The notes under the pieces were generated by a model. The model made no database searches. It was not told where the DNA came from and saw only the letters and a program-made list of their open reading frames with translations. Source: Elusimicrobia bacterium RIFOXYD2_FULL_34_15 (GTDB lineage: Bacteria; Elusimicrobiota; UBA8919). From it: DNA of 56,232 bases. Of this stretch, positions 3,720 through 56,232 are shown piece after piece (the first letter of the stretch is position 1; the number at the start of each line of letters is the position of its first letter). Position numbers and translations under genes: made by a program. The stretch is taken from positions 1 through 56,232 of the forward strand of contig MGVS01000039.1 in assembly GCA_001800605.1 (NCBI GenBank). Direction: 5' to 3'.

Positions 3720-3794
3720 CCAACCCGACTTTGATCGGGTTGGCCTCGCCAAAGCCTCCCTGTCCGCCAAAGTTTCAGTGGCGGAAGTGGCGGA
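3720..3794. repeat. Cluster of GC-rich hairpins in the response regulator leader
   Basis: CCAACCCGA-6-TCGGGTTGG (3720-3743); CCTG-TCCGCCA-9-TGGCGGA (3759-3785) nested in a related degenerate copy. Confidence 0.8.
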
Positions 3795-3854
3795 CCATCT
3801 TTCTATCTTTAAGATATATCTAATAAAACTAAATATCCTAAGTATCCTAATATT

Positions 3855-3883
3855 AGTATAAAGTATTTAGCAATTTTTGTCAA
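3855..3883 (-). promoter_or_regulatory. Sigma70-type promoter for regulator/kinase operon
   Basis: TTGACA-17-TATACT on minus strand. Confidence 0.75.
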
Positions 3884-3936
3884 GGGGAAATATTAAAAGC
3901 AGGGTTAGGGATTAGGATTACAGATTACAAAATCTT

Positions 3937-5775
3937 TCAATCTTCTAATTTGAGTACGGCGAGAAATGCTTCTTGCGGGATGGAAACGTTGCCAAATTGT
4001 TTCATTTTCTTCTTTCCTTCTTTCTGCCTTTCAAGAAGTTTACGTTTGCGGGAAATATCACCGCCGTAACATTTTGCGATGACATCCTTTCTTAATGCAC
4101 GGACATTTTCACGGGCTATTATCCTGCCCCCGATAGATGCCTGAATAGGAATTTCAAACATCTGGCGCGGGATCAGGCCTCTCAATTTATCCACTATTTT
4201 TCTTCCGTAATATTCTGCATTGTTTTTAAATACTACAAATGATAAAGCATCCACCGGTTCATTGTTCACAAGGATGTCCAGTTTAACTAAATCGGATTCT
4301 TTATAATCGCAAATTTCATAATCAAATGAGGCATAGCCGGAAGAAACTGATTTTAAATTATCATAAAAATCTACTATAGAATCGGCCAACGGCATTTCAT
4401 ATGAAAGTTTTACCTTGTCCTCTGTGATGTATGTCATATCCAGAAAATCTCCGCGCTTGCCTTCACAGAGAGCCATTACATTGCCTACATATTGAGCAGG
4501 AAGTACAATGGTTGCTAATATATACGGCTCGTAAATTTTTTCTATGTATTGTTTTTCAGGGAATTTTGACGGATTTTCTATTTCTATAATTGCGTCTTCG
4601 CCTTTTAAACCTGTAACCGGTTTACTTCCATCTATGCATTTAATTCTGTATCTTACGTTCGGAGCGGTTATGATAAGATTTAGGCCAAATTCTCTTTGTA
4701 AACGTTCTTTGACAATGTCCATATGCAGCAGGCCTAAAAATCCGCACCTATAACCGAAACCAAGTGCAACTGATGTTTCCGGCTGATAAAAAAATGCCGA
4801 ATCTTCAAGATGTAATTTTCCTATTGCCTTTGTAAGAGCATCATAATCTCCGGGTTGAACGGGATACAAACCGCAAAAAACAAACGGTTTTAATTCCTTG
4901 TATCCGGGGTGGGCTGTCTTTGCAGGATTCTCGACATCGGAAATTGTGTCTCCGATTTTTATCTTATGAATATCCTTTATACCGAGAATTACATAGCCGA
5001 CTTCACCCGCAGAAAGTTTTTCTATTTTGTGCCTGCCTGCGGGTGCAGACGGATTTTTTATTTCAAAAAAACCGACTTCTTCAACATCGAATTTTTCCCC
5101 GGATGAAAAGAAAAATACTTTTTGACCGGCCGATATCATTCCGTCAAAAACTCTTATATAAACTATTACTCCCCTGAAGGAATCGTAGAGAGAATCAAAA
5201 GCTAAAGCTTTTAACGGTTTTTCTGCTTCACCGACAGGAGCGGGTATTTTATTTATTATTGCATCAATTATTTCTTTCGTACCTATATTTTGTTTCGCAG
5301 AAACAAGTATCGGCTTTTCATCTATTTTTAAAATTATTTCTATCTGCTGCTGGGTCTTCGGCACGTCTGCCTGTTTCAAATCAATCTTGTTTATTACCGA
5401 AATTATTTTTAGATTATGTTGTCTTGCAAGGTCAAAATTTGAAAGCGTCTGGGCTTCAACACCCTGCGAAGCATCCACAAGCAAAAGACAACCCTCGCAT
5501 GCAGCAAGAGCTCTGGAAACTTCATAAGTAAAATCCACATGACCGGGTGTATCAATAAGATTTAGTTGATATTTTTCACCATCCGGTTTAGTATAGTTTA
5601 AACGGACAGTTTTTGCCTTAATCGTTATGCCACGTTCTCTTTCAAGGTCCATTGCATCCAAAACCTGTTCGTGATGTGTAGTTGTAATTGCAGAGGTAAA
5701 CTCTAAAAGCCGGTCCGCAAGCGTGGATTTACCGTGGTCAATGTGTGCAATAATAGAAAAATTACGGATTTTCAT
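3937..5775 (-). CDS. lepA: Translation elongation factor 4
   Basis: MKIRNFSIIAHIDHGKSTLADR, DTPGHVDF, CYGGDISRKRKLLE; start reset to ATG 5775. Confidence 0.98.
   Translation of the reverse strand: MKIRNFSIIAHIDHGKSTLADRLLEFTSAITTTHHEQVLDAMDLERERGITIKAKTVRLNYTKPDGEKYQLNLIDTPGHVDFTYEVSRALAACEGCLLLVDASQGVEAQTLSNFDLARQHNLKIISVINKIDLKQADVPKTQQQIEIILKIDEKPILVSAKQNIGTKEIIDAIINKIPAPVGEAEKPLKALAFDSLYDSFRGVIVYIRVFDGMISAGQKVFFFSSGEKFDVEEVGFFEIKNPSAPAGRHKIEKLSAGEVGYVILGIKDIHKIKIGDTISDVENPAKTAHPGYKELKPFVFCGLYPVQPGDYDALTKAIGKLHLEDSAFFYQPETSVALGFGYRCGFLGLLHMDIVKERLQREFGLNLIITAPNVRYRIKCIDGSKPVTGLKGEDAIIEIENPSKFPEKQYIEKIYEPYILATIVLPAQYVGNVMALCEGKRGDFLDMTYITEDKVKLSYEMPLADSIVDFYDNLKSVSSGYASFDYEICDYKESDLVKLDILVNNEPVDALSFVVFKNNAEYYGRKIVDKLRGLIPRQMFEIPIQASIGGRIIARENVRALRKDVIAKCYGGDISRKRKLLERQKEGKKKMKQFGNVSIPQEAFLAVLKLED
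5032..5052. repeat. 21-nt CCTG-footed hairpin inserted in frame in lepA
   Basis: CCTGCCTGCGGGTGCAGACGG, related to the 20-nt palindrome family; encodes PSAPAGR. Confidence 0.8.
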
Positions 5776-5792
5776 AAAATTAAAGATGGTGT

Positions 5793-5960
5793 ATGATTGC
5801 GGGATAGCGTGATAGAAAATAAGGCAAAAAATGAAAAAGTAGAAAGGAAAATAAAAATTCACAGCTAACCTTTCCACCTCTCTACCTTTTACCTTTCTAT
5901 CTTTCCACCTGCTTTATACAATGCACAATCGCACAATCGTGCTATCGCACTAACTCACAA
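5793..5960. repeat. Nested inverted 8-mer tandem arrays
   Basis: Outer GATWGYGB / GCACAATC arms, inner AGAAAGG / ACCTTTCY arms. Confidence 0.65.
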
Positions 5961-5974
5961 TTTTGCTTTAATAT

Positions 5975-7696
5975 TTAATGTTTTCTTCTTTGTTTTATTT
6001 TTCTTAAAATAATATCTCTTTTACTTGGATCGTTTAATATTTCGTCTGCCATTTTTTTTGCAGCAGCAAGATTTACTCTTCTGACTTCTTTCTTTGTCCT
6101 AAGTACCGAACTGGAAACAACGCTAAAATGTTCCAGGCCTAAACCTAAAAGTATTTCTGTATACAATGGATCGCCGGCCATTTCACCGCACATAGAAACC
6201 CATTTCCCTGCTTTTTGCCCGGTATCTATTATTGTTTTTAATAATCTCAATATTGAAAGATGCAGAGGATCATAAAGATTAGTAACATATTCATTTATTC
6301 TGTCTACCGCAACGGTATATTGTATTAAATCATTTGTACCTATAGATAAAAAGTCTGCTTCCTTTACCAATATATCAACAGTTAGTGCCGCTGACGGTAT
6401 CTCTATCATTACACCTACTTCTACATTCTCATCATATTGAATTGTCTTACTGCTTAATTCCTTTTTTACTTCATTTAATAAATAATTCGCAGCCCTAAGC
6501 TCGTCAATTCCTGAAATCATCGGATACATTATTTTTACATTCCCGAATACCGATGCCCTTAATATTGCCCTAAGCTGAATCTTGAAAACTTCGGGATGCC
6601 GGAGGCAAAATCTTATTGCACGAAGGCCCATAAACGGATTTCTTTCTTCTTTTAAATTAAAATACGGCAAGAGTTTATCGCCGCCTAAATCAATTGTCCT
6701 TATTACCACCGAATTTGGAAATACTTTTTCTACCACCATCCTATATGATTCAAATTGTTCTTCTTCACTCGGGAATTCTCTCCTGTTTAAAAAAAGATAT
6801 TCCGTCCTAAAGAGACCTATCCCTTCCGAACCGTGAGATATAACAGATTTTGTCTCTTCCGGAATTTCAATATTGGAAGCAACAACAATTTTTTTACCGT
6901 CAGTTGTCACCGCAGGAAGATCCATGTACTTAGAAAGTTCTTTTATTTCACCAATATATAATTGCTGCCTTCTCTTGTAATTTGTAATTGTGTCTTCATC
7001 CGGATCTATAATTACGACTCCCTCATTACCATCTATAATGACTGTCTGGCCATGAATAGCATGCGTTGTAATATCTTTCATGCCGACAACAGCAGGAATT
7101 TCCATTGCGCGCGCCATAATCGCAGTATGAGATGTTACCCCGCCCATATTTGTTGCAAATGCAAGAACATTTTCCTCTTTCATTACAATAGTATCCGTCG
7201 GAGTTAGATTATTAGCAAAAACTATTGAATGTTCTGTCACCTCAGAAAGCATTTTTTTATGGGCACCGGTTATATGTTTCATAATCTTCTTGCCGACATC
7301 GAGGATATCTTTCCCGCGTTCCCTGAAATATTCATCTTCTATTTTATCAAAAACCTGAGAATATTTTTCAATAACGTTATATAATGCATATTCTGCATTT
7401 ATTAGCTCTTTGTTTATTTTAGATATAACGTCTTTTTCAAAAGTCGGATCTTCCGCAATAAAAATGTAAGCTTCGAAAAGCTTAACATGTTTTTTTCCAA
7501 AATGTTTTGCTACTTTTCCTTTTGCTTTTTCCAGTTCTAATTTCGTATCGATAACTGCATTTTTAAATTTTTCTATTTCACTATGAACATCTTCTTTAGC
7601 TATTGGTTTTTTTACTGCAGAAAACTCTTCATCTTCTATAACAAAAGCTTTTCCGATTGCTATACCATCTGAAGCTGCAATACCTTTATATAACAT
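5975..7696 (-). CDS. ptsI: PEP-protein phosphotransferase (PTS enzyme I)
   Basis: GGVTSHTAIMAR phospho-His, GIGLFRTEYLF, SIGTNDLIQY, CGEMAGDP. Confidence 0.97.
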   Translation of the reverse strand: MLYKGIAASDGIAIGKAFVIEDEEFSAVKKPIAKEDVHSEIEKFKNAVIDTKLELEKAKGKVAKHFGKKHVKLFEAYIFIAEDPTFEKDVISKINKELINAEYALYNVIEKYSQVFDKIEDEYFRERGKDILDVGKKIMKHITGAHKKMLSEVTEHSIVFANNLTPTDTIVMKEENVLAFATNMGGVTSHTAIMARAMEIPAVVGMKDITTHAIHGQTVIIDGNEGVVIIDPDEDTITNYKRRQQLYIGEIKELSKYMDLPAVTTDGKKIVVASNIEIPEETKSVISHGSEGIGLFRTEYLFLNRREFPSEEEQFESYRMVVEKVFPNSVVIRTIDLGGDKLLPYFNLKEERNPFMGLRAIRFCLRHPEVFKIQLRAILRASVFGNVKIMYPMISGIDELRAANYLLNEVKKELSSKTIQYDENVEVGVMIEIPSAALTVDILVKEADFLSIGTNDLIQYTVAVDRINEYVTNLYDPLHLSILRLLKTIIDTGQKAGKWVSMCGEMAGDPLYTEILLGLGLEHFSVVSSSVLRTKKEVRRVNLAAAKKMADEILNDPSKRDIILRKIKQRRKH

Positions 7697-7710
7697 ATTT
7701 TTCTCAATTT

Positions 7711-7790
7711 GATTATACAGGTTTTTTATCTAATCTGTGTAATCGTTTTTCAAAATCCGTGTAATAAGACATCCTTCTTTATAGAATGTC
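7711..7790. repeat. GATTACACAGAT-family inverted-repeat element (degenerate)
   Basis: GATTATACAG ... AATCTGTGTAATC ... AATCCGTGTAAT plus terminal GACAT/ATGTC hairpin. Confidence 0.7.
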
Positions 7791-8055
7791 ATTCTTCTTC
7801 AAATTTCTTACTGATTAGATCTTCTACTGCGGCTAGTAATTCCGCTTCATCAGGACCATTGATTAAAAATCGTAATTCTGTCCCCTGTCCGGCAGCAAGC
7901 ATCATAAGACCCATTATAGATTTACCGTCAATCTCCTGATTGTCTTTGATTACTTTAATAGACGCTTTAAATTTACCCGTTGTCTGAACAAAAAGTGCTG
8001 AAGGGCGTGCATGCAAGCCTAATTTATTCTTTATCACAAGTGTCTTTTCAATCAT
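7789..8055 (-). CDS. ptsH: Phosphocarrier protein HPr
   Basis: GLHARPSA and DGKSIMGLMML motifs. Confidence 0.97.
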   Translation of the reverse strand: MIEKTLVIKNKLGLHARPSALFVQTTGKFKASIKVIKDNQEIDGKSIMGLMMLAAGQGTELRFLINGPDEAELLAAVEDLISKKFEEE

Positions 8056-8186
8056 AATTAAACTTCCTTATAAGTCGCCCGGAACAAGTGCGATAGTGGG
8101 ATGGCGCGATAGTGCATAGTTTGAAATCAGTTGTTCAAGCCGCTACTTTCTATCTATCTACCTCCGCCAGTTGGCGGATTACCTTT

Positions 8187-10322
8187 TTACCCTTTCCCTG
8201 CTTTTAAATTAATTTTTAATGTAAAATTATATTTTTCTTTCGGCTTTAAATTGAGTTTTCTATTAATAGTAACTGACGAACCCTGATAAGTTTTTTCGAA
8301 ACCACCATCTGATAATGAAATTGTCCAAATTGGAAATACCCAAAAATCAAAACTATCAGATACATCCATCTTGAGGGCCAGATTATTATATATATCATTC
8401 ATTGCAAAAGATTTTATCGTATCAAAAGAGGTCTTCGCTGAAAATCTTTCTTTCTTTGCTCCGGCCATATAAAAACAATTATCATCCTCGGGATTTGAAA
8501 ATCCAAAATTAAACTCGCAACCATACCAAAACTCCCAATCTTTTTCATAATTGTTTACAATTTGGTATTGAATATTAATTATCTGCTCATTTATAGATAT
8601 TGTCTTTTGCACTTCAGCAGGTATTAGACCTGATGGAAGCCAGAGAAAACCATTTCGTTTTAATGTTATATTTTCATTTTTTTTGCCGGATGCTATTTCC
8701 AATTTATACGGTTGATTTACAAAATCTCCTACTTCACCGTATTCACAATTAGAATATTTTTCCAGATTGGTATCGTTATGAAAAAAATGATCAATCAAGG
8801 AATTCCTGTTATACCAGTCATATTTAAGATATTTTTCTAAACCGAGTTCTTTTGTATAATAAGTTCCCTTTATCGGCTCCGCCTTTTCATCTACATTTTT
8901 TATTATAGAAACATCAACTTTTTTATGATATGCTTCAAATCTCCTGGTTAAAACATCCGTTAAATTATAACTTACCGGCTTGAAATCAATTTCTGTAATC
9001 GCACCGCCACAAGACGGTTTTACATAAACATTTATATTTTTATTTGAGAGTATAGCCTCGTTTTGCCCGTCTTTATCGAAATCAATAATGTCTTTAGAAA
9101 TTATCGGTTTTGATCCCGAATCCAGAACATTTTCCGCATCTATTAAACTTTTATAAATTGCATGCCTTAAATGAGGCAGGTACAATCCGCCAAATACACC
9201 ATGCCAATAAGCACAATTACATTGACCCTTATAAAGAGAATCTATTGCCTGCTCTATTTGTGAAACTGTCTTTTTATTTTTTTCTTCTGAGCCGGTTTCT
9301 TTATTTAAATTTAACGATTGAATCTTATCGCCGATATAAAGCATTTTTTTATGCATGTTGTTAGATTCAGTGTATTTTGTCAAAAAATTTCTCCAAAAAC
9401 CGCCTCGTAAAAATCTTTTTGTGTTAGCATCAGCATGTGATACAATTTTTTCAAAATCAACCTGAGATTTTGCGGGTAGTGACCACTCGCTCATCTCGAA
9501 ATACGAAGCAGTCGGCAGATAGATTCGGCCTCTTGCCGGATATTGCTTCATATATTCAGAAAAAGTTGTTGTATTAATCCAATCAGAATTTTTTTCTAAT
9601 AATGTTAAAAAATTTTCTAGCCATTTTTCTTCATAACATGTTTTGAAGGTTTCAGGCCACAATCCGAATTTCTCGCCATCGTCAACCATTACAAGCAGGT
9701 CTGACGGTTCATCGGATACATGACTCCTCAGATATTCTATAGTTTCTTCGGGTTCGGCAAACGGTGTTAAATATCTTAATTTTTGATTTATAGTGAAAAT
9801 TTTTAAAGCAAAACCCTGCTCTTCAGTTATAAAATACCCTTTCAATTTATTTTCTTCAATCCCTGACGCTAAAAAGGGTGCGTCATCCAAAATAACATAC
9901 TCAATACCTGCATCATTAAGCGATTTTGCTAATGACGGCTCCCAAACTCTTTCAGCCAACCACATACCTTTTGCTTTATATGAAAACTTTTTATCTATGT
10001 AACTGCTGAGTTTTGAAATTTGGCCTAATTTGTCTCTATCCGGGATTATAGACATTATTGGTTCATAATATCCGCCTGTTAAGAGCTCTGCTTGCCCTTT
10101 TTTAACAAGAGTTTTCAATTTATTTAGTATTTCCGGATTTTTTCTTTCAAAAAAATCAATTAAAGGACCTGTATAATGAAAGACTGCTTTTATTTTTGGA
10201 TATTTCTTTATAGTGTCTAAAAATGGTTCATATGCCATTCTTGTTGCCATATCAAAAATATCATCATAATTACCTACCGGCTGATGATTATGAACACCAA
10301 AAATAAAATTTATCTTCTTCAT
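8187..10322 (-). CDS. GH57 alpha-amylase / 4-alpha-glucanotransferase
   Basis: HNHQP, WLAERVWEP, DDGEKFG, YWHGVFGGLY motifs; C-terminal DUF1926-like region. Confidence 0.92.
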   Translation of the reverse strand: MKKINFIFGVHNHQPVGNYDDIFDMATRMAYEPFLDTIKKYPKIKAVFHYTGPLIDFFERKNPEILNKLKTLVKKGQAELLTGGYYEPIMSIIPDRDKLGQISKLSSYIDKKFSYKAKGMWLAERVWEPSLAKSLNDAGIEYVILDDAPFLASGIEENKLKGYFITEEQGFALKIFTINQKLRYLTPFAEPEETIEYLRSHVSDEPSDLLVMVDDGEKFGLWPETFKTCYEEKWLENFLTLLEKNSDWINTTTFSEYMKQYPARGRIYLPTASYFEMSEWSLPAKSQVDFEKIVSHADANTKRFLRGGFWRNFLTKYTESNNMHKKMLYIGDKIQSLNLNKETGSEEKNKKTVSQIEQAIDSLYKGQCNCAYWHGVFGGLYLPHLRHAIYKSLIDAENVLDSGSKPIISKDIIDFDKDGQNEAILSNKNINVYVKPSCGGAITEIDFKPVSYNLTDVLTRRFEAYHKKVDVSIIKNVDEKAEPIKGTYYTKELGLEKYLKYDWYNRNSLIDHFFHNDTNLEKYSNCEYGEVGDFVNQPYKLEIASGKKNENITLKRNGFLWLPSGLIPAEVQKTISINEQIINIQYQIVNNYEKDWEFWYGCEFNFGFSNPEDDNCFYMAGAKKERFSAKTSFDTIKSFAMNDIYNNLALKMDVSDSFDFWVFPIWTISLSDGGFEKTYQGSSVTINRKLNLKPKEKYNFTLKINLKAGKG

Positions 10323-10323
10323 A

Positions 10324-10434
10324 TTACTTATTACCCAGCTTGTCCCGACCCATCGGGATTACTCATTACTTGTCACTCATCACTCGTTACCCCCGCCACT
10401 AGGTCTTCGGCGGGCAAGCATTACTCGTTACCGA
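10324..10434. repeat. TTACYCR heptamer array carrying two inserted hairpins
   Basis: Hairpins at 10338-10358 (GCTTG-TCCCGA-CCCA-TCGGGA) and 10392-10418 (CCCGCC...GGCGGG-CAAG); removing them restores the 7-nt period. Confidence 0.85.
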
Positions 10435-10438
10435 TTTT

Positions 10439-10846
10439 CTATGCTCTGAAGAAATTTCCCTTTAAATCCATTATTGATGCTTTTGCATCACTTAATACTT
10501 TTTCTTTTAGTTCCAACAATGTCAATTTCTGCCTATGTGTAAATGCAGACATAACCATATATAGATTAACACCGCTTAATATTTCAATCTTGTTGTTAAA
10601 TTTTTTTAAAAGAGATGTGCAGACAACCGAAGGGGTACCGCCTACTAAATCAAGTAATATAAGCAAACCGTTTTCAATGTTAAATGCTTTTATTATTTTT
10701 TCAAGCCGGATTTCGACAGATTTAGGATCTTCATTGCTTTTTATAGATACTGCGGCCGAAAACTGCTGTTCACCTATTATGTTTCGGGCAGTTTTCAAAA
10801 GCGTTGCCCCGAAATCTTCGTGTGTAATAATTAGAATATTAATCAT
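10439..10846 (-). CDS. PTS mannose-family EIIA-like protein
   Basis: MINILIITHEDFG, LDLVGGTPS, SGVNLYM; start reset to ATG 10846. Confidence 0.88.
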   Translation of the reverse strand: MINILIITHEDFGATLLKTARNIIGEQQFSAAVSIKSNEDPKSVEIRLEKIIKAFNIENGLLILLDLVGGTPSVVCTSLLKKFNNKIEILSGVNLYMVMSAFTHRQKLTLLELKEKVLSDAKASIMDLKGNFFRA

Positions 10847-11045
10847 TTTTTCGTTAGAAAAGCCGAGACCACCACCGAACCGTAGATGGGCAGGCAAACT
10901 CGGCAACTCTTTCAACTTTTAACTTCCAACATCGTTCTCTTGTTCTGAAGTTCTGCTGTTCTATAAACTATGAACTCTTTACTATGAACTTTTTTACATT
11001 TTACTCATTACCCGTTACTCGTTACTTATTCTTTTCCTTCTATGT

Positions 11046-12626: not shown

Positions 12627-12644
12627 AAATTTTTCCTAATAAAT

Positions 12645-15639: not shown

Positions 15640-15647
15640 TATTTTCT

Positions 15648-15733
15648 CAGTATACAGTATACAGTACACAGTTTTTAGATAACCTTATTTTTTGTCTACT
15701 CACTGTATCCTGTAGTCTGTATCCTGTGTACTG
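15648..15733. repeat. Inverted pair of CAGTAYA heptamer arrays
   Basis: CAGTATA CAGTATA CAGTACA ... CTGTATC CTGTAGT CTGTATC CTGTGTA. Confidence 0.8.
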
Positions 15734-15738
15734 CAGTA

Positions 15739-16197
15739 TTATAGTTCGTCTTCTTCCTTTATTATTTTAATAACTTCGTGAGAAGATTGAGCGTCCCTTA
15801 AGGATTGTCTGAAAAATTTATCTTTCAATAACCTTGAAATTTTTGCAATCGCCTGCAAGTGTTCGCTTATTGATTCAGGCGGAGCAATCATTAAAAAAAC
15901 TATATAAACAGGTTCGCCGTCAAGAGAATCAAAATCAACACCAGCTCTGGAAATACCTAAAGATGCAACTATCTTGGAAACCTCTTCGCTTTTTGCATGC
16001 GGTATCGCAACACCTTGGCCGATACCGGTAGACCCTGTACTTTCTCTCTTCATAATAGCTTCTATAGTTTTATCAACACTTTTTACAAGTTTCTTTTTAG
16101 CCAACACATCTATAAGTTCGTTGATAACCTCTTTCTTAGTTTTTCCTTTTAAATCCGTGATAACTAAATTTTCCGATAAAAAATCCAAAATTTTCAT
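15739..16197 (-). CDS. ptsN: PTS EIIA (Ntr/fructose type)
   Basis: RESTGSTGIGQGVAIPHAK; position after hpf. Confidence 0.88.
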   Translation of the reverse strand: MKILDFLSENLVITDLKGKTKKEVINELIDVLAKKKLVKSVDKTIEAIMKRESTGSTGIGQGVAIPHAKSEEVSKIVASLGISRAGVDFDSLDGEPVYIVFLMIAPPESISEHLQAIAKISRLLKDKFFRQSLRDAQSSHEVIKIIKEEDEL

Positions 16198-17549: not shown

Positions 17550-17732
17550 AATTTAAAATTAAAAGTTTCCGCTACTAAGTCGTTAGCGGATCCGCCGAAG
17601 CATAGTGGCGTAAAATATTCAGAACGACATTCATGTCATGCTGAGCCACATTCACTTCGTTCAGGATGACACTTTGTATCATTTTTAATTTTTCATCCCG
17701 TAAAAACGGGACAAGTTTTTGCATTTTTAATT
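17550..17732. repeat. A/T-rich heptamer arms carrying several hairpin elements
   Basis: Double hairpin 17568-17610, GTCAT...CTTCG..TCAGGATGAC 17635-17670, TCCCGT-AAAA-ACGGGA-CAAG 17696-17715. Confidence 0.8.
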
Positions 17733-19504: not shown

Positions 19505-19656
19505 GATTACACACCTGCCTGCCGGCAGGCAGGGATTTAGAAAACCGATTACACAGACTTTTAAAAGCAATTTAAGATTTAACGAAGAGCCTTAATCTGT
19601 GTAATCTTGCCTTTTATCTGTGTAATCAGTGATTGTTTGGATTTTTAAACAATCAC
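19505..19656. repeat. GATTACACAGAT-family element with inserted 20-nt palindrome (19514-19533)
   Basis: Removing the palindrome restores GATTACACA|GATTT; terminal hairpin GTGATTGTTT/AAACAATCAC. Confidence 0.88.
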
Positions 19657-20730: not shown

Positions 20731-20834
20731 CAATTTAAAATTTAAAAACTTGTCCCGTTGTTACGGGATGTAAAATTATCCGCCACTAAGTCGCTGGCGG
20801 ATCCGCCTAAGCATCAATGGCGGAAAAATTGTGG
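20731..20834. repeat. AAAATT array with three inserted hairpins (filled site)
   Basis: Inserts 20749-20768 and 20779-20824; empty counterpart at 46187-46223. Confidence 0.88.
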
Positions 20835-24802: not shown

Positions 24803-24952
24803 CCTGCCGATGCATCAGTGACAGACTACCTCTTCGGTTTGCTGTAGTTGCCAACCTTGGCTGGCTTCTTTGTCTTTCAAATGTCAACACAGCCGAGCAA
24901 GCTCGTCAACTACATCCGCCAGTTGGCGGAGATAGGTAACCCCTGCCAATAC
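24803..24952. other. GC-richer intergenic rod-like structured element of unknown class
   Basis: Nested complementary segments TACCT/AGGTA, TGTAGTTG/CAACTACA, CTTGGCTG/CAGCCGAG; carries TCCGCCAGTTGGCGGA (also at 8163-8178). Confidence 0.5.
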
Positions 24953-24958
24953 TATGAT

Positions 24959-27900
24959 CTACCTAATTACAGCTATTTTCCTTAAAACCCTTATCGTCTT
25001 CTCGCCTGTCTTGTGTGCCTTTATTATATATAAATAAACGCCAGATGCAATGTCATTTATATCCCAAGTGTATTCGTAGGCGTATTTATTATTCTTTATA
25101 ATTGGCAATGAAAATATTTCATTTTTATGCAATAATTCACCTGCTATGTTGTATATTTGTATCTCCAAACTATCAGCTATTCCACACTCAGCATGAATAA
25201 TTGGCTGATAACCATTTTTAGCCGGGTTTGGATATGCATACACCTCACCCTTAACAAATGCTGCCGACGGTGCTTGTTTTAATGCTCCAAGTAATATTGG
25301 CTTTTCTTTGTAGTTTACACCTATTATCTTGCTTTGGCCGTTTATGTCAATGCTTTTTGCTATTACGTTACTTAATGTTATTCCTTGTCCGTTTATTGAT
25401 ATATCGCTGTATGGAGCATATATTATTCCTTTTAGTTCTCCCTGCCCGCTTATCTGTATCGGTTGTGTAGTGTTACAATAAATCATTAACTTGTATGGGT
25501 TCCCATTATAATGTACTTCACTTTGTCCTGATATCTGTATTTTGCCTATGCATAATATTTGTATTTCGCCGGTTAGATTAAGTTTTGCTTGTCCTGATAG
25601 ATCTATTCCTGATAAATAATATGTTCCTGTTGATATTGTTAGTGTGTCCTGCCCTGATAGTGTTAATATTCCATTTATAAGTGCTTTTTTGCCTTTGCTG
25701 GTTAATGGTATTTTGTCGTTGTCGTTTGTTTGTGATATTTTTACCTGCATTGTGTCCAAGTCTATAATATATGGACTCATTGGTTCTGTATTTTGTGTTA
25801 TTGTCCCAGTTATTTTGCTTTGGCCAATTAATGTTATTTTTTGTCCTTCCGCATTACCGTCTATTAATGCTTGTCCTGATAGTTTTATTTGTTTGTTGCT
25901 TCTTACATCCCCGTATATTTTACCTTGGCCGTTTATTGTTATTCCTTCAATTCCAAGTGCTGCATATTCAGTTAGTTGCGTTACCGTAAATACTGCTGAT
26001 TTTAATGTTTCTACGTTTGAAACATTATCAATACTCCGGTAAGTTACTGTGTGAGTACCTTCGGAGACAAGGTAAATGGGTAAAGAGGTAGAAAGGTAGA
26101 CAGTGTATGTACTATTATCTATTGAATAATATGTTTCTTTCACACCGGATGCTATACCGTTAACTAACGGATCAATAGTATTAAAAAATATTGGGGTGTC
26201 TGGTGTTATGTAGGTTTCTGTTGTGTTTATAGTAGTGATTGGCGGAGTTGCGTCTACATTTAGAGTTATAGAGTTATAGGGTTCAGCATTATTGAGATTA
26301 TCCTCTGCATAGTATTTTATTGTATGGATACCTTCTGATAGAGTAAATGAAGATGTATAATTTATGAACTCTGAACTATCAACTCTGAACTTAATATCTT
26401 TTAGTCCTGAAAATACTCCATTGATTATTGAATCTTCTGCACTTATTATTATTTCCGTCTCTGAATTTATATATGTTTTGTCGCCAATCTGAAATCCCGA
26501 TGAGTCGGGACAAGTTCCGCAATTTGAAATTTGTAATTCCGATTCCGGCGGAGTATTATCTAATTTTATTGTTACTGTTCTTTCCGGTTCGGTGTTTTCC
26601 ACGTTATCTTGCGAGTAATAATTCATTAAATATATTCCATCTATGCCAGTTATGTTGAATGTGGTGATATATTGGGTATATGCTGGAATATTATCGGTAC
26701 TGGTATATATGGTGTATTTTGTTTCTTTTATACCTGACGGTATTGTGCCAGTACTTGCTTGCCCTGAGCCTGTCGAAGGGTCTATGGTTACCAATTTAAA
26801 TATTGAGTTTGAGGTTATGTATTCATTAAACTTTGGATCAGAGATTGATAAAAACGTTTCGGGAACGCTGTTGTCAATTGTTATTGTTAATGATTTTTCT
26901 GCCTCTTGATTTAGTAGGTTATCATAACTTCTGTAATATATAGTATGCTCGCCGTCAGACAGATTAGAAAGATAAATGGTAGACAGGTAAATAGAATACG
27001 GACTATCATCTATCTTATATTCTGTGTATTTTACACCAAGTCCTATTCCATCCCCAACTTCTATTAAATCATCTATCGCCGATAATTCTATTTGCGACTC
27101 CGACGTTATATATGTCTTGCCATTAATTTGAAATTTGTAATCTGCAATCTGCAATTGACTCACCGGCGGTTTTGTATCCCAAACTACTTCAAATTTTGCC
27201 GTAGTAGATGAACTGTAATTACCGATTGCATCTGTAGCTTCAACTGTCAATGTATAAATTCCATAGGATGGTAAATTAAGAGGCTCTATCTGAACATCCG
27301 TACTCACTATTACTTTAGTACCGATTTTTGATGTATCAGGACATTCTATCAACGTTAAATAACCGGTTGTTACAAACCGTGACAAATCAGTTACATTGAA
27401 ATCAACATATATTTTATTTAAAGTTGCTATAAATCTTTCTCCGCCTTCAGGTGAATTTATTGTAATTACCGGTGATTCATTATCGGTAATTGCTAATATG
27501 CCTATCCTACTTGAAGATTCGTATCTGCTGTCTCCGTCAAATCGCACTCTTAAATAGTATGATAATCTTACCGGTCTTTCAGGAAGTGAAAATTCAAATG
27601 TCACACTGCTTTTTACAAGTGTGCTTTGTGTTATTGTTTGCCAACTGTCATTATTCCAATATTCAAGCACAACCGTTTTTGGTTCATCTTCCTGGTGCAA
27701 TAATTCTAAATTTTCATCATCTGTCATTGTTACTATCAATGTTGTTGTTCCCGGATACAAAATAGTTGCGTTAGGTTTAGATAATATAACTTTTTCTTTT
27801 ACTATTTTTAATGTTTCCTGCACTTGACTGGGTAAATAATAATATCCATCACCGGGAAATTCTATCTTTATAGGATATTCACCGGGCAGTAAATCAATGC

Positions 27901-45153: not shown

Positions 45154-46168
45154 AAAGCTTTTTTACAGCTCCAAATACTTCATCAACAGTAACTTTGTTC
45201 ATACAATTAAAATGATTTCTTGGACATTTATTTGACCCATGCCTGTCGCATGGCCGGCACTTGATATCCTTTTCTATTACAACCGCTTTATCCGAATACG
45301 GGAAAAATCCGAATCTTTTTACTGTAGGACCAAAAATTGCAACAGTCGGTATATCCAATGCAGCGGCAATATGCATCGACCCGGAATCATTTGTAATAAA
45401 AACTCTGCATCTTTTTATCAACGCTGTTAGCTGTTTAAGCGTTGTCTTGCCGGCAAGATTAATCGGGTGTTTCTTCATATTTTTTTCAACTATTGATGCT
45501 GTATCAATATCATCGACACCGCCAAAAATTATTATTTTTCCGCCAAATTTATCTACAATTTTATCCGATAATTCTGCATATCTTTCCGGAAGCCATCTTT
45601 TGGTCGCCCAAACACTTCCCGGATTTATCCCAAAATATCTGCCCTGAGCGACCTGTCCTGAGCTTGTCGAAGGATCTAAAGTTGAGTCTGCATACTCATC
45701 GGATTTTTTATCAATATATATTTTTGTCTTTTCTTTTTCTAATTCAAAACCGAAATATTGCATTAAATCCAAATATCTTTCAAGTTGACATTTATCTTTA
45801 TCAAAAGGTATGCACTTAGTTAAAAAAAACCTACCCGCACTATTACAAAACCCTACTCTCTTTTTTATTCCGGATAAATAGGCTAAAAAGCCAGATTGGA
45901 AAGAAGGGTGTGGAATTAAAACCGTATCATATTTTTTTTCCCTTATTTTTTTTGCTAATTTAAATAAATTAAAAATCCCCCTGTCTTTACCTTTTTTATC
46001 ATAAACAATAATTTCATCAATATCCGGGTGCCCTACAAGAATATCTTTTGTCGAAGGAATGCATAATACAGATACTTCAGACTTTAAATATTTTTTTGCT
46101 GCCTGAATTAAAGGAATCGTTAAGACAACATCTCCTAAAAAAGCCGTCTGAATAATCAGTATTTTCAC
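45131..46168 (-). CDS. waaF: LPS heptosyltransferase II (GT9)
   Basis: QTAFLGDVVL, NPGSVWATKRW, NDSGSMHIAAAL, IFGPT; likely GTG start 46168. Confidence 0.82.
   Translation of the reverse strand: MKILIIQTAFLGDVVLTIPLIQAAKKYLKSEVSVLCIPSTKDILVGHPDIDEIIVYDKKGKDRGIFNLFKLAKKIREKKYDTVLIPHPSFQSGFLAYLSGIKKRVGFCNSAGRFFLTKCIPFDKDKCQLERYLDLMQYFGFELEKEKTKIYIDKKSDEYADSTLDPSTSSGQVAQGRYFGINPGSVWATKRWLPERYAELSDKIVDKFGGKIIIFGGVDDIDTASIVEKNMKKHPINLAGKTTLKQLTALIKRCRVFITNDSGSMHIAAALDIPTVAIFGPTVKRFGFFPYSDKAVVIEKDIKCRPCDRHGSNKCPRNHFNCMNKVTVDEVFGAVKKLYEYFEYN
45639..45674. repeat. CCTGAGC...TCGAAGG-family element inside waaF
   Basis: CTGCCCTGAGCGA-CCTGTCCTGAGCTTGTCGAAGGA; encodes PSTSSGQVAQG. Confidence 0.8.
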
Positions 46169-46186: not shown

Positions 46187-46357
46187 CAATTAAAAATTAA
46201 AAATGTAAAATTAAAAATTGTGGTGTTTTATCTATGAACCATAAACTACTAACTCTGAACTTTTTACCTTTTACTCAACCTGTTCTGCCGCCTATGGCGA
46301 GCCTCGCCCCTTTGGGGCGGGAGCTTATTAAGTAGTCGAAGGATTACTCGTTACTGA
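46187..46357. repeat. Composite repeat spacer: empty AAAATT array, CTATGAA array, nested hairpins, TTACTCG units
   Basis: 46287-46320 hairpin (relative at 55331-55372) interrupts CCTGTTCT|GAGCTT...TCGAAGGA. Confidence 0.75.
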
Positions 46358-47573: not shown

Positions 47574-47582
47574 AATTACGTT

Positions 47583-47611: not shown

Positions 47612-47624
47612 GAAAAATGCTTTT

Positions 47625-47804: not shown

Positions 47805-47807
47805 AAT

Positions 47808-48695: not shown

Positions 48696-48825
48696 GTTTT
48701 TACTCCCTATTTTAACTTCAATGAAAAGTTAAAAGTTTAAATTAGAATCAAGTTTTTTTCGTTTTATTTCAATTTATACTTTTTATCCTTCGTCACACTC
48801 AGGACAAGTTTTTAACTTGCCTTAA

Positions 48826-50256: not shown

Positions 50257-50290
50257 GATTACGCTCCAATTAAAAATTTTTGCAAAATTT

Positions 50291-50453
50291 TAGTACTCAG
50301 AATACAGTATACTGTACACAGTTTAAAATTCAGTACTCAGTACACATAATATAGTATACAGCTTTTAATAACTCGCAAAACTGAATTCTGTGAGCTGTTT
50401 ATTATGAGCAGACTTTTAAGAACTGTATCCTGTATACTGTTTGCTGTGTACTG
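50291..50453. repeat. Inverted pair of CAGWAYW heptamer arrays
   Basis: CAGAATA CAGTATA...CAGTACT CAGTACA / CTGTATC CTGTATA ... CTGTGTA. Confidence 0.75.
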
Positions 50454-50455
50454 CC

Positions 50456-51121: not shown

Positions 51122-51435
51122 TTATTTTCAATTACCGGCGTACTTTGAACAGTTTCATTTATGACCGCTGAAATTGCCGATTTGAGCATCTGAACATTTA
51201 CATTTTCCGATATCTTTATTTTTACGATATTTCCCTGAATTTCATGAACAGTTCCATAAATTCCGCTGATTGTAATTACCCTGTCGCCTTTCTTTAGATT
51301 ATTAATCATTTTCAAATGCTCTTTCTGTTTTTTGGCTTGCGGCCTGATTAATAAAAAATAAAAAACTACAAAAATCAAAATTATTGGCAACATCGACGAA
51401 AACATTGAAGCTCCCTGCGCTGTATTTGGTGGCAT
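51118..51435 (-). CDS. yajC: Preprotein translocase subunit YajC
   Basis: FYFLLIRPQ, LKKGDRVITISGIYG. Confidence 0.95.
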   Translation of the reverse strand: MPPNTAQGASMFSSMLPIILIFVVFYFLLIRPQAKKQKEHLKMINNLKKGDRVITISGIYGTVHEIQGNIVKIKISENVNVQMLKSAISAVINETVQSTPVIENK

Positions 51436-51461
51436 TTTTATTCCCCCTATACTTCGTATAA

Positions 51462-52601
<1,140 letters not shown>

Positions 52602-52723
52602 TTATTTTTAAAAGGATGGAGGTAAAAGATGGAAAAATAAAGAGTAACAGCTTAAATGATTTGAACTACTTAAACCCATACCTTCTACCCATTACCCATT
52701 ACTCATTACCCGTTACTGATTTT

Positions 52724-53389
52724 TTAAAGGAATTTATTTTTGTTTACATAAAGAACGAACATGCATTTTAAATAATTTGAAGCTTTTTTTAGCTGTAGCA
52801 TTCTTTCCAGAAAAGTTTCAAAATATTCGCCTATATCTATAATCTTTGTATCAATAGTTAATTCCAGCGAAATTGTTTTTGATTCGGCATCAACTCTTAA
52901 AAAAGAATTTTTACATGCGAGATTTACACGTGTGTGTTCATCCAGTCCGGTTCGCTTTTCGGTTCTTACTCTTGAATGATGTACATCTGTTTTATCACCT
53001 AAAATTACTGCAGCAGTAAGTTCCGAGCCCGGCATAATATCTTTTTCTTCGTGCGATCCGACAGCAGTAATTATTTTGGCAAGCTCATTATTATGCATAC
53101 CCATGCGCTGCAAAAACCTTTTTGATAAGATCGCGCCCGATAAAGTATGCTGGTGCATCTCTATTGAGTTTCCGATATCATGAAGATAACCTGCTATCTG
53201 TGCCAGTTCAATATCTCTTTTTGAAAAATTTAAATATGTTAAAACATTACCGGCAATATTTGAAGCAAGTTTCGCATGCCTAAGACCGTGTTCCTTATAT
53301 CCTATTGCAGCAAAATTATTATCCGCGGCACCTAGGAATACTCTTACATAATGATCTTTTTTTACTTCGGAAATAGTTATATTACCCAT
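52724..53389 (-). CDS. HD-domain phosphohydrolase (paralog of 50456-51121)
   Basis: EHGLRH, YLHDIGN, GSHEE, LGDKTDVH. Confidence 0.88.
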   Translation of the reverse strand: MGNITISEVKKDHYVRVFLGAADNNFAAIGYKEHGLRHAKLASNIAGNVLTYLNFSKRDIELAQIAGYLHDIGNSIEMHQHTLSGAILSKRFLQRMGMHNNELAKIITAVGSHEEKDIMPGSELTAAVILGDKTDVHHSRVRTEKRTGLDEHTRVNLACKNSFLRVDAESKTISLELTIDTKIIDIGEYFETFLERMLQLKKASNYLKCMFVLYVNKNKFL

Positions 53390-54255
53390 AATATTAAAGG
53401 AATCAAAACCAAAGTCATAATTAAACCGACGGCAATCATCGAAGATGCAAATTCATAATCTGCATGATATTTTCTGGTATATATGTAAGAACTAACTGCT
53501 GACGGCATTGAACTTGAAAGCAGGCATACAGATCTTGCACTACCAGATATTTTTAAAATTTTACAAAATAAAATTGCAACTAAAAAACCGCCAATCATGC
53601 GTACCGAAACTCCGATGAATATTTTTTTTAGGATATCTTTATTTACCGGTTTTATTTGGTATCCCACCAGACACAACATTATCGGCAGTGTAATAATATT
53701 TAAAATTTTGCCGAAATTATCTAAATATGGAGGAATATAAATATTTTTTAAACTCATTAAAACACCCAAGAAAGCCGCATATACCATAGGCAATCTGAAT
53801 ATTTCTATTGCGGAACCGCTCAAAATCCAAAGCCCTATGCTATTATATAAAAGTGTCTGAAAAATATTATACATAATTGCATAATAAGTGCCTTCTGCCC
53901 CGAAAAAAATGGCATTTAGCGGGATCGCAAGATAGGCGGAATTCATAAAAATAATCGGCACCGCAATATTCCTAAATTTCAGAGAAAATATTTTTGAATA
54001 TAATGTTGCAAAAACCGCACCAAAAAAAAGGACAATTACAACTATATAAATAATATTTACCGAATTAGATAAACTTTCCCTTAACGGAGTCTTCCACATA
54101 GTAAAAAAAGTAAAAATCGGAAATAAAAAATAAATTGCAAATGTAACAAAATATTTTATAAATTTATCGTCCCAGTCAAGTTTAAATCTTGAAAAAATAT
54201 ATCCTATCAATATATAAGGTAATACTTTTAAAACAAGATCAAATAAAATAGTCAT
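53377..54255 (-). CDS. AEC (auxin efflux carrier)-family transporter
   Basis: About 10 TM helices, FMNSAYLAIPL, SSMPSAV. Confidence 0.85.
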   Translation of the reverse strand: MTILFDLVLKVLPYILIGYIFSRFKLDWDDKFIKYFVTFAIYFLFPIFTFFTMWKTPLRESLSNSVNIIYIVVIVLFFGAVFATLYSKIFSLKFRNIAVPIIFMNSAYLAIPLNAIFFGAEGTYYAIMYNIFQTLLYNSIGLWILSGSAIEIFRLPMVYAAFLGVLMSLKNIYIPPYLDNFGKILNIITLPIMLCLVGYQIKPVNKDILKKIFIGVSVRMIGGFLVAILFCKILKISGSARSVCLLSSSMPSAVSSYIYTRKYHADYEFASSMIAVGLIMTLVLIPLILWVI

Positions 54256-54264
54256 TTTAAAATT

Positions 54265-54402
54265 CAGTACTCAGAATACAGTACTCAGGATACAGCTCAT
54301 TAAAAGCAACTCACAGGATAACAGTATTCAGAATTCAGCTTTATAAATTATTAAAAGCTGTATACTGTATTCTGTGCGCTGTGTACTGTATCCTGTGTAC
54401 TG
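54265..54402. repeat. Inverted pair of CAGDAYW heptamer arrays
   Basis: CAGTACT CAGAATA CAGTACT CAGGATA / CTGTATA CTGTATT CTGTGCG CTGTGTA CTGTATC CTGTGTA. Confidence 0.85.
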
Positions 54403-54410
54403 CCTTTGTG

Positions 54411-54454
54411 ATTATATAAAATATTCTTGACTTTTGAAAGTAAAAAGTTAGAAT
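54411..54454. promoter_or_regulatory. Overlapping divergent sigma70-type promoters
   Basis: Plus: TTGACT-16-TAGAAT (54427-54454); minus: TTTCAA-17-TATAAT (54439-54411); lies at the only strand switch. Confidence 0.6.
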
Positions 54455-54486
54455 AGAAATAAAGCAAGTACTCAGGATACAGAATA

Positions 54487-54513
54487 TCCGCCACTAAGCC
54501 ACTGGCGGACAAG
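54487..54513. repeat. 27-nt CAAG-tailed hairpin between heptamer units
   Basis: CAGAATA [TCCGCCACTAAGCCACTGGCGGACAAG] CAGGATA. Confidence 0.85.
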
Positions 54514-54584
54514 CAGGATACAGTTTAAGGCAAAAAAATAGTAATTTCTTAACTGCCGTTTATATATCTTATTGGAGGAACATT

Positions 54585-55295
54585 ATGGACTTTTTTAGAA
54601 AACACATGAAAACCATTTTTTGGATAACACTAATTGGTTTTGTGTTTGCAACTTTTGCATATTTTGGGGCCGGTGGAATTTTAACGAAAGGAATAGATAC
54701 CGTAGCAACAGTAAATGGAAATAAGGTTTCTTATACCGAATTTTCAAGACAGGTTTCAAGGACAATTGAAAATCAGCAGGCACAAAAAAAAGACTCTCAA
54801 CTTACAGAAAATGATATTAAACAGATTAAAATGAGCGTTTTACAGGATATGGTTTCCGAAGAAGCTTTTCTTCAGATGGCGTTAAAATACGGATTAGATA
54901 CAACAGATAACGAAGTCCGGGCTTACTTACAGCAAATTCCGCAGTTTCAGAAAGATGGGCATTTTGATCATATGACTTATTTTCAGGCACTAAATTATGG
55001 TTTAAAAATAAAACCGGAAGAATTTGAAAAATCAAGAAAAAGAGCACTTACGGTTGATAAGCTAAGATACCTGATTTACCTTGAAGCAAAAGTTTCTGAC
55101 AAAGAAGCCGAAGATGAATTTTTAAGGAGAAACAGTAATTTGAAAAATTGGCTTAAAGAAAAAGATAAATTTATAGAAACATTAAGAAATGAAAAGCGGG
55201 TTTTATTATTTAGTCAATTTGTTAACGTTTTGCAACAAAAAATAAAAGTTCAGGATTACATGTCAAAATTTGAACAACAACAAGCACAACAGTAA
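54585..55295 (+). CDS. SurA/PpiD N-terminal-domain periplasmic chaperone
   Basis: N-terminal TM helix, VATVNGNKVS, IPQFQKDGHFD; SD GGAGG. Confidence 0.85.
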   Translation: MDFFRKHMKTIFWITLIGFVFATFAYFGAGGILTKGIDTVATVNGNKVSYTEFSRQVSRTIENQQAQKKDSQLTENDIKQIKMSVLQDMVSEEAFLQMALKYGLDTTDNEVRAYLQQIPQFQKDGHFDHMTYFQALNYGLKIKPEEFEKSRKRALTVDKLRYLIYLEAKVSDKEAEDEFLRRNSNLKNWLKEKDKFIETLRNEKRVLLFSQFVNVLQQKIKVQDYMSKFEQQQAQQ

Positions 55296-55372
55296 TAAGT
55301 AACGAGTAACGAGTAATGGGTAAAGGATAGTCCGCCCTTTGGGTGAGGTCTTGCCATAGGCGGCGGGACAAG
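55289..55372. repeat. NNRGTAA heptamer array plus CAAG-tailed hairpin
   Basis: ACAGTAA TAAGTAA CGAGTAA CGAGTAA TGGGTAA; hairpin 55331-55372. Confidence 0.8.
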
Positions 55373-55443
55373 TTTTTGTATTTTTGACTGTCTTCTTTGT
55401 TGAATCCTTTGAACATTTTGTACCTCTAATAAATATCAAACTT

Positions 55444-56175
55444 ATGACTGATGCTCAATTCTCTGTAATAATATACTCGCTAATTGCCGGAATATCAACC
55501 ATAATCGGGACCATACTAATCTTCGCTAACGAAAAGTTAGTCAAAAAACATTCCGTATATCTTATAAGTTTTGCTGCAGGCATTATGCTTGCTACCTCTT
55601 TTTTACATCTAATTCCGGAATCTTTGGAAATATCTGAGAATGTTTCAATTTTTGTTTTTATCGGTTTTTTAATTTTTTACGTAATTCAAAATTACCTGAT
55701 AACTATCCATCCTTGTAACGAAGCAAATTGCGAGGTACACCGTTTGGGGATAATGTCCTTCATCGGATTAGCGATACACTCATTATTAGACGGTATTGCG
55801 ATTGCTATTGGATTTGAGGTTTCTTCAAGTATCGGTATATTTACCGCTGTCGCAGTCATCTTACATGAATTTCCCGAAGGACTTATAACTACCGGCATTT
55901 TAATGCACACTAACCTGAAAAAACAAAAGATATGGATATATTCACTGGTTGTGGCATTAGCAACACCTTTTGGAGCAATCGTTTCGTTATTTCTTATTCG
56001 AAATCTACAACCGAATATTTTGGGTAATGCTCTTTCAATAACAGCAGGTTCATTTATTTACCTTGCTGCGTCGGATTTAATTCCTGAGATGCACAAATCG
56101 AAAAGAAAGATTAACAGTTTGATTCTAATTTTTGGAATAATATTTGTATATCTGTTGGGCAAGTTATTCCACTAA
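55444..56175 (+). CDS. ZIP-family metal transporter
   Basis: SFAAGIML, HLIPES, IHSLLDG, LHEFPEG, DLIPEMH; start reset to ATG 55444. Confidence 0.92.
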   Translation: MTDAQFSVIIYSLIAGISTIIGTILIFANEKLVKKHSVYLISFAAGIMLATSFLHLIPESLEISENVSIFVFIGFLIFYVIQNYLITIHPCNEANCEVHRLGIMSFIGLAIHSLLDGIAIAIGFEVSSSIGIFTAVAVILHEFPEGLITTGILMHTNLKKQKIWIYSLVVALATPFGAIVSLFLIRNLQPNILGNALSITAGSFIYLAASDLIPEMHKSKRKINSLILIFGIIFVYLLGKLFH

Positions 56176-56232
56176 ATATAGTAATCCCGATGAGTCGGGA
56201 CAGGCTGAGTAACGCTTGCCCGTCAGTGGCGG

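Follow-up and report, generated by a model that had tools for sequence, protein, structure and literature searches.

Tagged repetitive extragenic palindromic (REP) sequences have been sorted into a GTAG and a CGTC super-family, of which the CGTC class has no dedicated transposase (Di Nocera 2013, PMC3733652). Here we describe another population of tagged hairpins, in a 56,232-nt stretch of DNA from Elusimicrobia bacterium RIFOXYD2_FULL_34_15 (hereafter the window), which is the entire contig C39 (MGVS01000039.1) of a draft genome of 2.47 Mb in 119 contigs with 34% GC (G000); the sequencing runs that hold DNA of this genome are labelled as soil and groundwater metagenomes. These elements, which we call CYTG units after the tetranucleotide CTTG or CCTG (CAAG or CAGG on the opposite strand) at the hairpin foot, are probably (at roughly 70%) miniature, non-autonomous mobile DNA units, each composed of a tag and a hairpin.

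CYTG units share many properties with REPs. They are GC-rich palindromic units in the 20–40 bp range, present in high copy number (62 copies of the 27-nt pattern in G000), mostly extragenic with some copies inside genes; one end carries a conserved unpaired tetranucleotide, variable stems occur under one tag, and untagged inverted doublets are found beside tagged units. As with the CGTC REPs, a dedicated transposase is not evident. However, the units are tagged with CTTG or CCTG rather than GTAG or CGTC. By word search, CTTG, CCTG, CAAG and CAGG have 0 occurrences in the main text of PMC3733652, and CTTG and CCTG are absent from the main texts of two further papers on REP-associated tyrosine transposases (RAYTs). 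Unlike in a REPtron, no CYTG unit flanks the RAYT genes in the 35–360 nt read beside the Y1 genes on the displayed sides; the short RAYTs have GTAG REPs within or next to them, and G000 holds a separate GTAG REP population tied to its RAYTs. Further, CYTG units nest at fixed loop positions and form head-to-tail 27-nt arrays, neither of which is described in the accessible parts of the REP literature.

Other miniature elements offer partial analogies. Miniature inverted-repeat transposable elements have terminal inverted repeats (TIRs), a target-site duplication and usually more than 50 bp, whereas CYTG units show no duplication at empty sites or nests. Rickettsia palindromic elements are palindromic selfish repeats of about 100–150 bp, found in frame in housekeeping genes, where they are tolerated as extra peptide loops, and they are not known to carry a terminal tetranucleotide tag. 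CYTG units similarly form in-frame palindromic inserts, but these are tagged and measure 27 nt or multiples of 27 nt. The small dispersed repeats (SDRs) reportedly range from 21 to 27 nt, fall into hairpin families and nest in other repeats. SDR5 is described as a module of 21 nt whose precise insertion point lies between bases 3 and 4 of HIP1 (PMC13756078, PMC4390886), and SDRs are reported only from Nostocaceae (PMC5861425). Judged by such descriptions in citing papers rather than by sequences, CYTG units appear SDR-like in encoding no protein and in being units of about 21–27 nt that insert precisely into other repeats (20 of 21 nests exact, array phase, empty sites), and their behaviour seems closest to that of the Nostocaceae SDRs, although they occur in a different phylum. 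Finally, at the ends of IS200/IS605 elements (IS608, ISDra2), a tetranucleotide 5' of the hairpin foot guides an HUH Y1 nuclease on single-stranded DNA (PMC8266576). The CYTG tag likewise sits directly 5' of the hairpin foot; however, IS200/IS605 elements have two distinct ends, an encoded TnpA, a fixed target word 5' of the insertion and a preference for the lagging-strand template, whereas CYTG units are 20–27 nt long, comprise a single hairpin without a gene, and show neither a fixed target nor a strand bias.

A position-specific CYTG tag at the foot of GC-rich hairpins

The whole of G000 was scanned for hairpins with a perfect stem of at least 6, at least 4 G/C in the stem and a loop of 3–14, of which 1240 non-overlapping ones were kept; the foot tetramer was read towards the stem on either side, and its expectation was taken from the genome tetramer frequency. 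CTTG stood directly at the foot in 72 cases compared with 7.9 expected (9.2-fold), and CCTG in 35 compared with 7.3 (4.8-fold), so that the genome-wide enrichment which the first-pass annotation had set as the test of its proposed foot tetranucleotide is present. At offsets of 1, 2, 4 and 8 nt from the foot the counts drop to only 2–11, and the excess is therefore position-specific. About 15 of the 107 footed hairpins are expected by chance. Among the seven family patterns examined, there were 0 cases of CYTG on both sides of one hairpin, and flank information beyond tag and stem amounts to 0.43 bit or less in 25 context representatives.

The same annotation had regarded the tagged hairpin families as unrelated. 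Several stem families are indeed tagged: the foot is found on 48 of 152 YCCGCC-N11, 10 of 13 YCCACC-N11, 5 of 32 short-loop YCCGCC, 17 of 47 TCCCGA-N4, 6 of 9 TCCCGT and 7 of 8 CCTGAC-N4 hairpins, and on 0 of 25 CGCCCC-N3 hairpins. However, the stems are not wholly unrelated, as the tag occurs on 84 of 275 YCC...GGR stems versus 23 of 965 other stems (Fisher p 3e-39, uncorrected for shared descent), and CYTG-YCC...GGR is their common signature. In each unit the hairpin comes immediately after the tag, its stem beginning with YCC and ending with GGR, and four families can be recognized:

Family 1: CYTG-YCCRCC-N11-GGYGGR, 27 nt.
Family 2: CYTG-TCCCGW-N3-4-WCGGGA, 20 nt.
Family 3: CYTG-CCTGAC-ggca-GTCAGG, 20 nt.
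Family 4: CYTG-YCCTGAG-N6-8-GAAGGR, about 23 nt, 38 copies in G000, with a stem of only 4 bp.

Grouped by flanking context, the 107 footed hairpins form no more than 25 clusters, of which 10 are multi-copy and 15 hold a single hairpin, and the CYTG excess therefore stems from a handful of multi-copy families. Most of the footed hairpins (87 of 107) lie outside crude open reading frames (ORFs), while ORFs make up about 88% of G000. A conserved ...AGT loop end allows 146 of 165 YCCRCC-N11 hairpins to be oriented; in this list of 146, read by hand, the 5' neighbour is CYTG in about 58 and a partner hairpin in about 70, and these back-to-back partners form untagged doublets similar to REP doublets (REPINs). 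The only non-YCC stem that is footed repeatedly belongs to a longer six-copy repeat, ..GTTTCGTCAGCACACGGTCC-CCTG-GTGGGG-ccgt-CCCCAC-TCGTTCCGCTGAATG.. (C107:12735, C21:41271, C68:118854, C70:25168, C70:77152 and C97:73546).

Within the window, 11 of the 16 foot sites listed by the first-pass annotation are family members with the tetranucleotide at the foot, and three (21195, 55372 and 56215) are partial. The remaining two do not hold, since the CCTG at 5032 is part of a hairpin loop within the lepA reading frame and that at 46279 is 8 nt away from the hairpin. The sites said to lack the foot (8163, 20779 and 24915) are indeed without CYTG. A 20-nt palindrome with CCTG ends, CCTGCCTGCCGGCAGGCAGG, does exist, but there the CCTG is base-paired within the stem rather than an unpaired foot, and the palindrome was therefore rejected as foot evidence. 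The individual sites are as follows:

3759–3785, plus strand: 27-nt unit CCTG+TCCGCC-N11-GGCGGA, in the loop of a decayed outer hairpin.
10339–10358, plus strand: 20-nt unit CTTG+TCCCGA-ccca-TCGGGA inside a TTACYCR heptamer array.
10392–10418, minus strand: 27-nt unit CTTG+CCCGCC-N11-GGCGGG in the same heptamer array; its removal restores the phase.
17696–17715, minus strand: 20-nt unit CTTG+TCCCGT-tttt-ACGGGA.
20749–20768, plus strand: 20-nt unit CTTG+TCCCGT-tgtt-ACGGGA, adjoining the hairpin doublet.
20779–20824, no strand: untagged back-to-back doublet of two TCCGCC-N11-GGCGGA hairpins (20779–20801 and 20802–20824).
26495–26514, minus strand: 20-nt unit CTTG+TCCCGA-ctca-TCGGGA, in frame in the ORF of a 1632-aa surface protein (with one additional 5' base: TCPDSSG).
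26754–26780, plus strand: 27-nt in-frame insertion CTTG+CTTG+CCCTGAGCCTGTCGAAGGG (PSTGSGQAS), containing the 23-nt unit 26758–26780.
45652–45674, plus strand: 23-nt unit CCTG+TCCTGAGCTTGTCGAAGGA with a weak 4-bp stem.
48786–48808, minus strand: 23-nt unit CTTG+TCCTGAGTGTGACGAAGGA with a weak 4-bp stem.
54487–54513, minus strand: 27-nt unit CTTG+TCCGCC-N11-GGCGGA within CTGTATC-type heptamers.
56185–56204, minus strand: 20-nt unit CCTG+TCCCGA-ctca-TCGGGA.
56215–56232, plus strand: irregular unit CTTG+CCCGTC..., cut by the contig end.
21157–21195, minus strand: partial class match, a CCTG+CCCGC...GCGGG hairpin with a long structured loop.
55372: imperfect composite, partial site.
8163–8178, no strand: untagged short-loop hairpin TCCGCC-agtt-GGCGGA, with a second copy at 24915–24930.
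1065–1084, no strand: the 20-nt perfect palindrome, with a second copy at 19514–19533.

When stretches of 56–76 nt were folded, those at 26758 (z -0.34) and 45652 (z +0.39) did no better than shuffles, and the stretch at 48808 (z -3.83) forms another hairpin, into which the CAAG itself is drawn. Housekeeping genes of an ordinary kind (lepA, a phosphoenolpyruvate-utilising enzyme, glycoside hydrolase family 57 glucan enzymes, secD and tgt) make up the window together with the gene of the 1632-aa surface protein, which has a type IX secretion system sorting tail, and nearly all genes are on the minus strand. In the spacers at 8090–8130, 10320–10440, 11010–11030 and 15640–15745, tandem repeats of 7 and 8 bases (TTACYCR, CAGTATA and GATAGYGG) form mosaics, often as inverted arrays around a centre.

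Insertion of whole units into loops, arrays and genes

Each unit runs from the C of CYTG to the final base of the stem. The tag is part of the unit, and insertion involves whole units, whose hosts are loops of other copies, heptamer and octamer arrays, spacers and, in frame, genes. There are 21 cases of a 27-nt unit within another YCCRCC hairpin, and in 20 of them, taking out the 27-nt inner unit leaves parts of the outer loop that together make exactly the canonical 11 nt; the loop is split 8+3 in nine cases (same orientation) and 11+0 in 11 cases (opposite orientation). In heptamer arrays of the GTAA type, exact removal of 27 nt restores the phase in 10 of 11 cases. In TTAC-type arrays, removal of 20-nt units (11 of 11) or 23-nt units (7 of 7) leaves 8 nt, and these units are therefore effectively 21 and 24 nt long. 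The orientation relative to the host array is constant within each family. Further, the junction of the doublet at 20779–20824 is empty in the window, while by our own reading a CTTG-CCTGAC-ggca-GTCAGG unit occupies that junction at five or six other loci.

Two protein-coding genes have orthologous empty sites in relatives (G001, of the same genus as G000 with about 80% gene identity, and G002, G003 and G006, of related genera). The surface protein reads ..ID-PSTGSGQAS-TGTIPSGIKE.. in G000 and ..ID-SGTIPSGIKE.. in three homologues (two from G001 and one from G002), and in the DNA, whose flanks are alignable, the extra 27 nt are CTTG-CTTG-CCCTGAGCCTGTCGAAGGG at window 26754–26780. Similarly, an arginyl-tRNA synthetase (ArgRS)-like gene (C78:1359–3065, minus strand) has 27 extra residues compared with G002, G003 and G006, encoded by an in-frame insert of 81 nt in which three 27-nt units sit one inside another. 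The spacers that are syntenic in G001 were dropped as a source of empty sites, as they carry wholly different repeat mosaics and cannot be aligned to G000, which suggests fast turnover. Overall, the tag is a genuine feature, and the miniature mobile hairpin units that bear it form a class which resembles REPs but is distinct from them. The effective lengths of 21, 24 and 27 nt are all multiples of three, though most copies are intergenic.

Distribution among relatives and the Y1 nucleases

Across 301 genomes of the phylum, the pattern CYTG-YCCRCC-N11-GGYGGR has 62 copies in G000, 56 in G001, 28 in G002, 66 in G173 (a member of another family), 7 each in G171 and G248, and 5 in G211, compared with 0–2 per genome for a reversed-pattern control; it is absent from all 89 genomes of one large family of the phylum. 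The ...AGT loop end is conserved across the unit-bearing lineages. In G173 the unit forms head-to-tail arrays with a 27-nt period, and one of these (C27:2332–2412, locus L259) is a spacer-free tandem array, CCTGCCCGCCGATGCTGTAGTGGCGGG. The footed 20-nt TCCCG and 23-nt TCCTGAG families were not found in G001, G002, G173, G171 and G248, and stem families with the same tag therefore arose within this species. In samples of 233–400 kb, the foot excess is present in G001 (5 versus 0.9 and 6 versus 0.8), weak in G003 and absent from G002 and G006, where classical GTAG-tagged REPs with many stems are found instead. A scan of 185,579 species genomes for CTTGYCCGCC-N11-GGCGGR gave, among the matches listed, mainly single occurrences in GC-rich genomes and one Elusimicrobia record with a similar unit, and is thus of little value for judging distribution.

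G000 has five HUH Y1 (PF01797) genes. Two encode short RAYT-like proteins of 149 and 151 aa (C1:7236–7685 and C68:7193–7648), one of which, L003, scores 88.7 bits and is the only one of the two above the NCBIfam REP_Tyr_transpos cut-off of 80. The genome also has 64 hairpins with GTAG 0–3 nt from the foot, mostly of other stem families (GCAGAGC, GCCGAC, GCCAAG and GGCAAAGC) but including a few YCCGCC doublets, and copies of GTAG REPs lie inside both short RAYT ORFs. In the RAYT orthologues of G001, G002 and G003, usually two inverted GTAG REPs bracket the HUH region in indel-rich alignment columns, and GTAGTT-ACCGAG-cttg-CTCGGC REPs flank the orthologous RAYT of G211, forming a classical REPtron with it. 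GTAG REPs thus lie in or beside the short RAYT genes of G000, its relatives and G211, which ties these RAYTs to the GTAG class. Every short RAYT examined in four genomes (L003, L005, L114, L117, L120, L121, L110 and L124) has GTAG REPs within its reading frame, with stems that match the abundant REP families of the respective genome; the location of REPs inside rather than beside the RAYT gene looks unusual.

The other three Y1 genes are longer (219–334 aa; C64, C38 and C87), one has a DnaA-C-like tail, and all are bracketed by their own inverted repeats:

C64:11021/11752 and C38:2245/3003: inverted repeats TAGGGACAGC(TACC/GCCC)TAT.. around long Y1 genes.
C87:25304/26388: inverted repeat TAGGGGACGTAGT.. 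around a long Y1 gene.

The word TAGGGACAG occurs 23 times in G000, mostly in the inverted-repeat form of the long Y1 genes, and these genes with their repeats make up a small family of the TIR type that belongs to neither hairpin class. They match a published class of TIR-flanked RAYT-like genes (PMC3733652). At their ends, the long Y1 genes carry ..YTG-TCCC.. or ..ACG-TCCCC.. (CCTGTCCCCC in G211, ACTGTCCCC in G171 and GCTGTCCCTA in G000); this resembles CYTG-YCC and is one lead only.

At E ≤1e-8, L003-type RAYTs occur in 26 of the 301 genomes. G000, G001, G002 and G211 hold both CYTG units and such a RAYT. All seven genomes with at least five units have 5–9 Y1 matches (E ≤1e-5), while any match is found in 146 of 301 genomes; this co-occurrence lends weak support to a Y1 enzyme and is confounded by phylogeny. 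Neither a reverse transcriptase (PF00078) nor a TnpB zinc-ribbon (PF07282) match was found in G000, so that an RNA-mediated route is disfavoured.

Possible routes of movement

We hypothesize that an enzyme acting in trans would move the units by reading the tag and the stem base on folded single-stranded DNA. Because neither a reverse transcriptase nor TnpB was found, the most plausible candidate movers would be the five HUH Y1 nucleases of G000, although we consider this assignment less likely than not. Since the short RAYTs already have GTAG partners, the TIR-flanked long Y1 genes appear at least as likely candidates.

Several observations weigh against mobile units moved by such an enzyme. 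By eye, insertion points show neither a target duplication nor a shared target word; duplication was not seen in the nests or at the two orthologous empty sites, and the four bases adjoining an insertion point on each side hold no complement or position-wise complement of CYTG. Insertion polymorphism within the population was not seen in the assembled contigs, which break at repeats and in which no skip of 20–27 nt was listed. A strand bias of the IS200/IS605 type was not observed either (59 versus 48 relative to local GC skew, 39 versus 34 relative to co-directional genes). On the displayed sides of the five Y1 genes (35–360 nt, less than a full flank scan) there is no CYTG unit, and the 125 ORFs within 300 nt of units include no recurrent nuclease or transposase family, the only recurrent ones being surface proteins, porin-like proteins and ATP-binding cassette ATPases. 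The short RAYTs pair with GTAG REPs, and the presence of L003-type RAYTs does not track unit number. Moreover, the independent associations of tag and stem are few, about four families in 10 multi-copy context clusters, and the families may share descent from one ancestor.

Alternative to a mover of another type, the units might belong to a classical REP/RAYT system, in which CYTG is the guide tetranucleotide and RAYTs cleave next to the hairpin and disseminate it, in the manner of TnpA-REP and its GTAG REPs. The two agree in architecture, with an unpaired tetranucleotide 5' of a GC-rich hairpin, and to this extent the REP-like analogue proposed in the first-pass annotation stands. Two short RAYT genes are present, one above the NCBIfam cut-off, four genomes hold units together with an L003-type RAYT, and GTAG itself is guide-like, as altering it can shift the cleavage site (PMC8266576). 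However, GTAG REPs of the abundant families of the respective genome lie in or next to every short RAYT gene, GTAGTT-ACCGAG REPs flank the G211 orthologue, and the stretches read beside the RAYTs hold no CYTG unit. Further, G173 (with its 66 units), G171 and G248 have no L003-type match at E ≤1e-8 with that query, whereas at least 12 genomes with such a RAYT have 0 units. The link of the CYTG class to one RAYT-type nuclease, which had also been proposed, is therefore not borne out, and we consider a classical REP/RAYT system quite unlikely.

Movement might also require no dedicated enzyme, if replication errors at hairpins (template switching or slippage) or gene conversion multiplied the units and the tag was conserved only through the descent of each family from a single founder. 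Consistent with this, no associated gene was found, target duplication is absent, units cluster in tandem arrays and inside hairpins, where polymerases stall, G173 has 27-nt tandem arrays, and there are only about 10 multi-copy context clusters. However, the inner and outer units of nests differ in stem and loop and are therefore not local duplications, unrelated hosts, two protein-coding genes among them, show the same exact boundaries, the 4-nt tag and YCC base are common to four families that differ in stem and loop, and two of the four are confined to this species, which makes such an origin improbable. Least probable in our view is a selected, immobile element with a host function, such as a binding site of a nucleoid protein or an RNA-binding protein, or an RNA hairpin with a role in terminating or protecting transcripts. 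The 27-nt sequence (stem, ...AGT loop end and tag) is conserved across several families of the phylum, which is unusual for selfish repeats, and the units lie mostly outside ORFs in an ORF-dense genome. By contrast, footed hairpins show no orientation bias relative to flanking co-directional genes (39 versus 34), which argues against a terminator or RNA role, and Rfam gave 0 matches in the window at the gathering threshold. In addition, copies occur within ORFs and within each other, the syntenic spacers of G001 carry entirely different repeats, and copy number varies from 0 to 66 among related genomes.

Beyond the reading of CYTG units as miniature non-autonomous mobile DNA, it is a speculative possibility that they represent a third super-family beside GTAG and CGTC and, at the same time, the first SDR-like smallest mobile DNA outside cyanobacteria. 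Such units would target the loops of their own kind to produce Russian-doll nests and would colonise essential genes in frame, and their mover might be a kind of Y1 nuclease that has so far no link to REPs, for which the long TIR-flanked Y1 is a candidate, or another enzyme.

How repeats of 20–30 bases move is an open question, as both SDRs and CGTC REPs are without a known enzyme. G000 is unusually clean material in this respect, with exact boundaries, nests at fixed positions and in-frame inserts in essential genes; its GTAG/RAYT system is an internal control in the same cell, and there are only five candidate Y1 nucleases. The mechanism is therefore directly testable with oligonucleotides and five proteins. 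In practical terms, assemblies break at CYTG units, and conserved proteins of uncultivated groundwater bacteria gain peptide loops from them.

A further repeat of G000 is an AT-rich long hairpin with the conserved core TCTCC(A/G)GTAGGGGAC, which often adjoins GGCGGA-type hairpins and was found at C58:26152, C71:920, C83:15064, C94:8500/8610 and C117:1591/1653.

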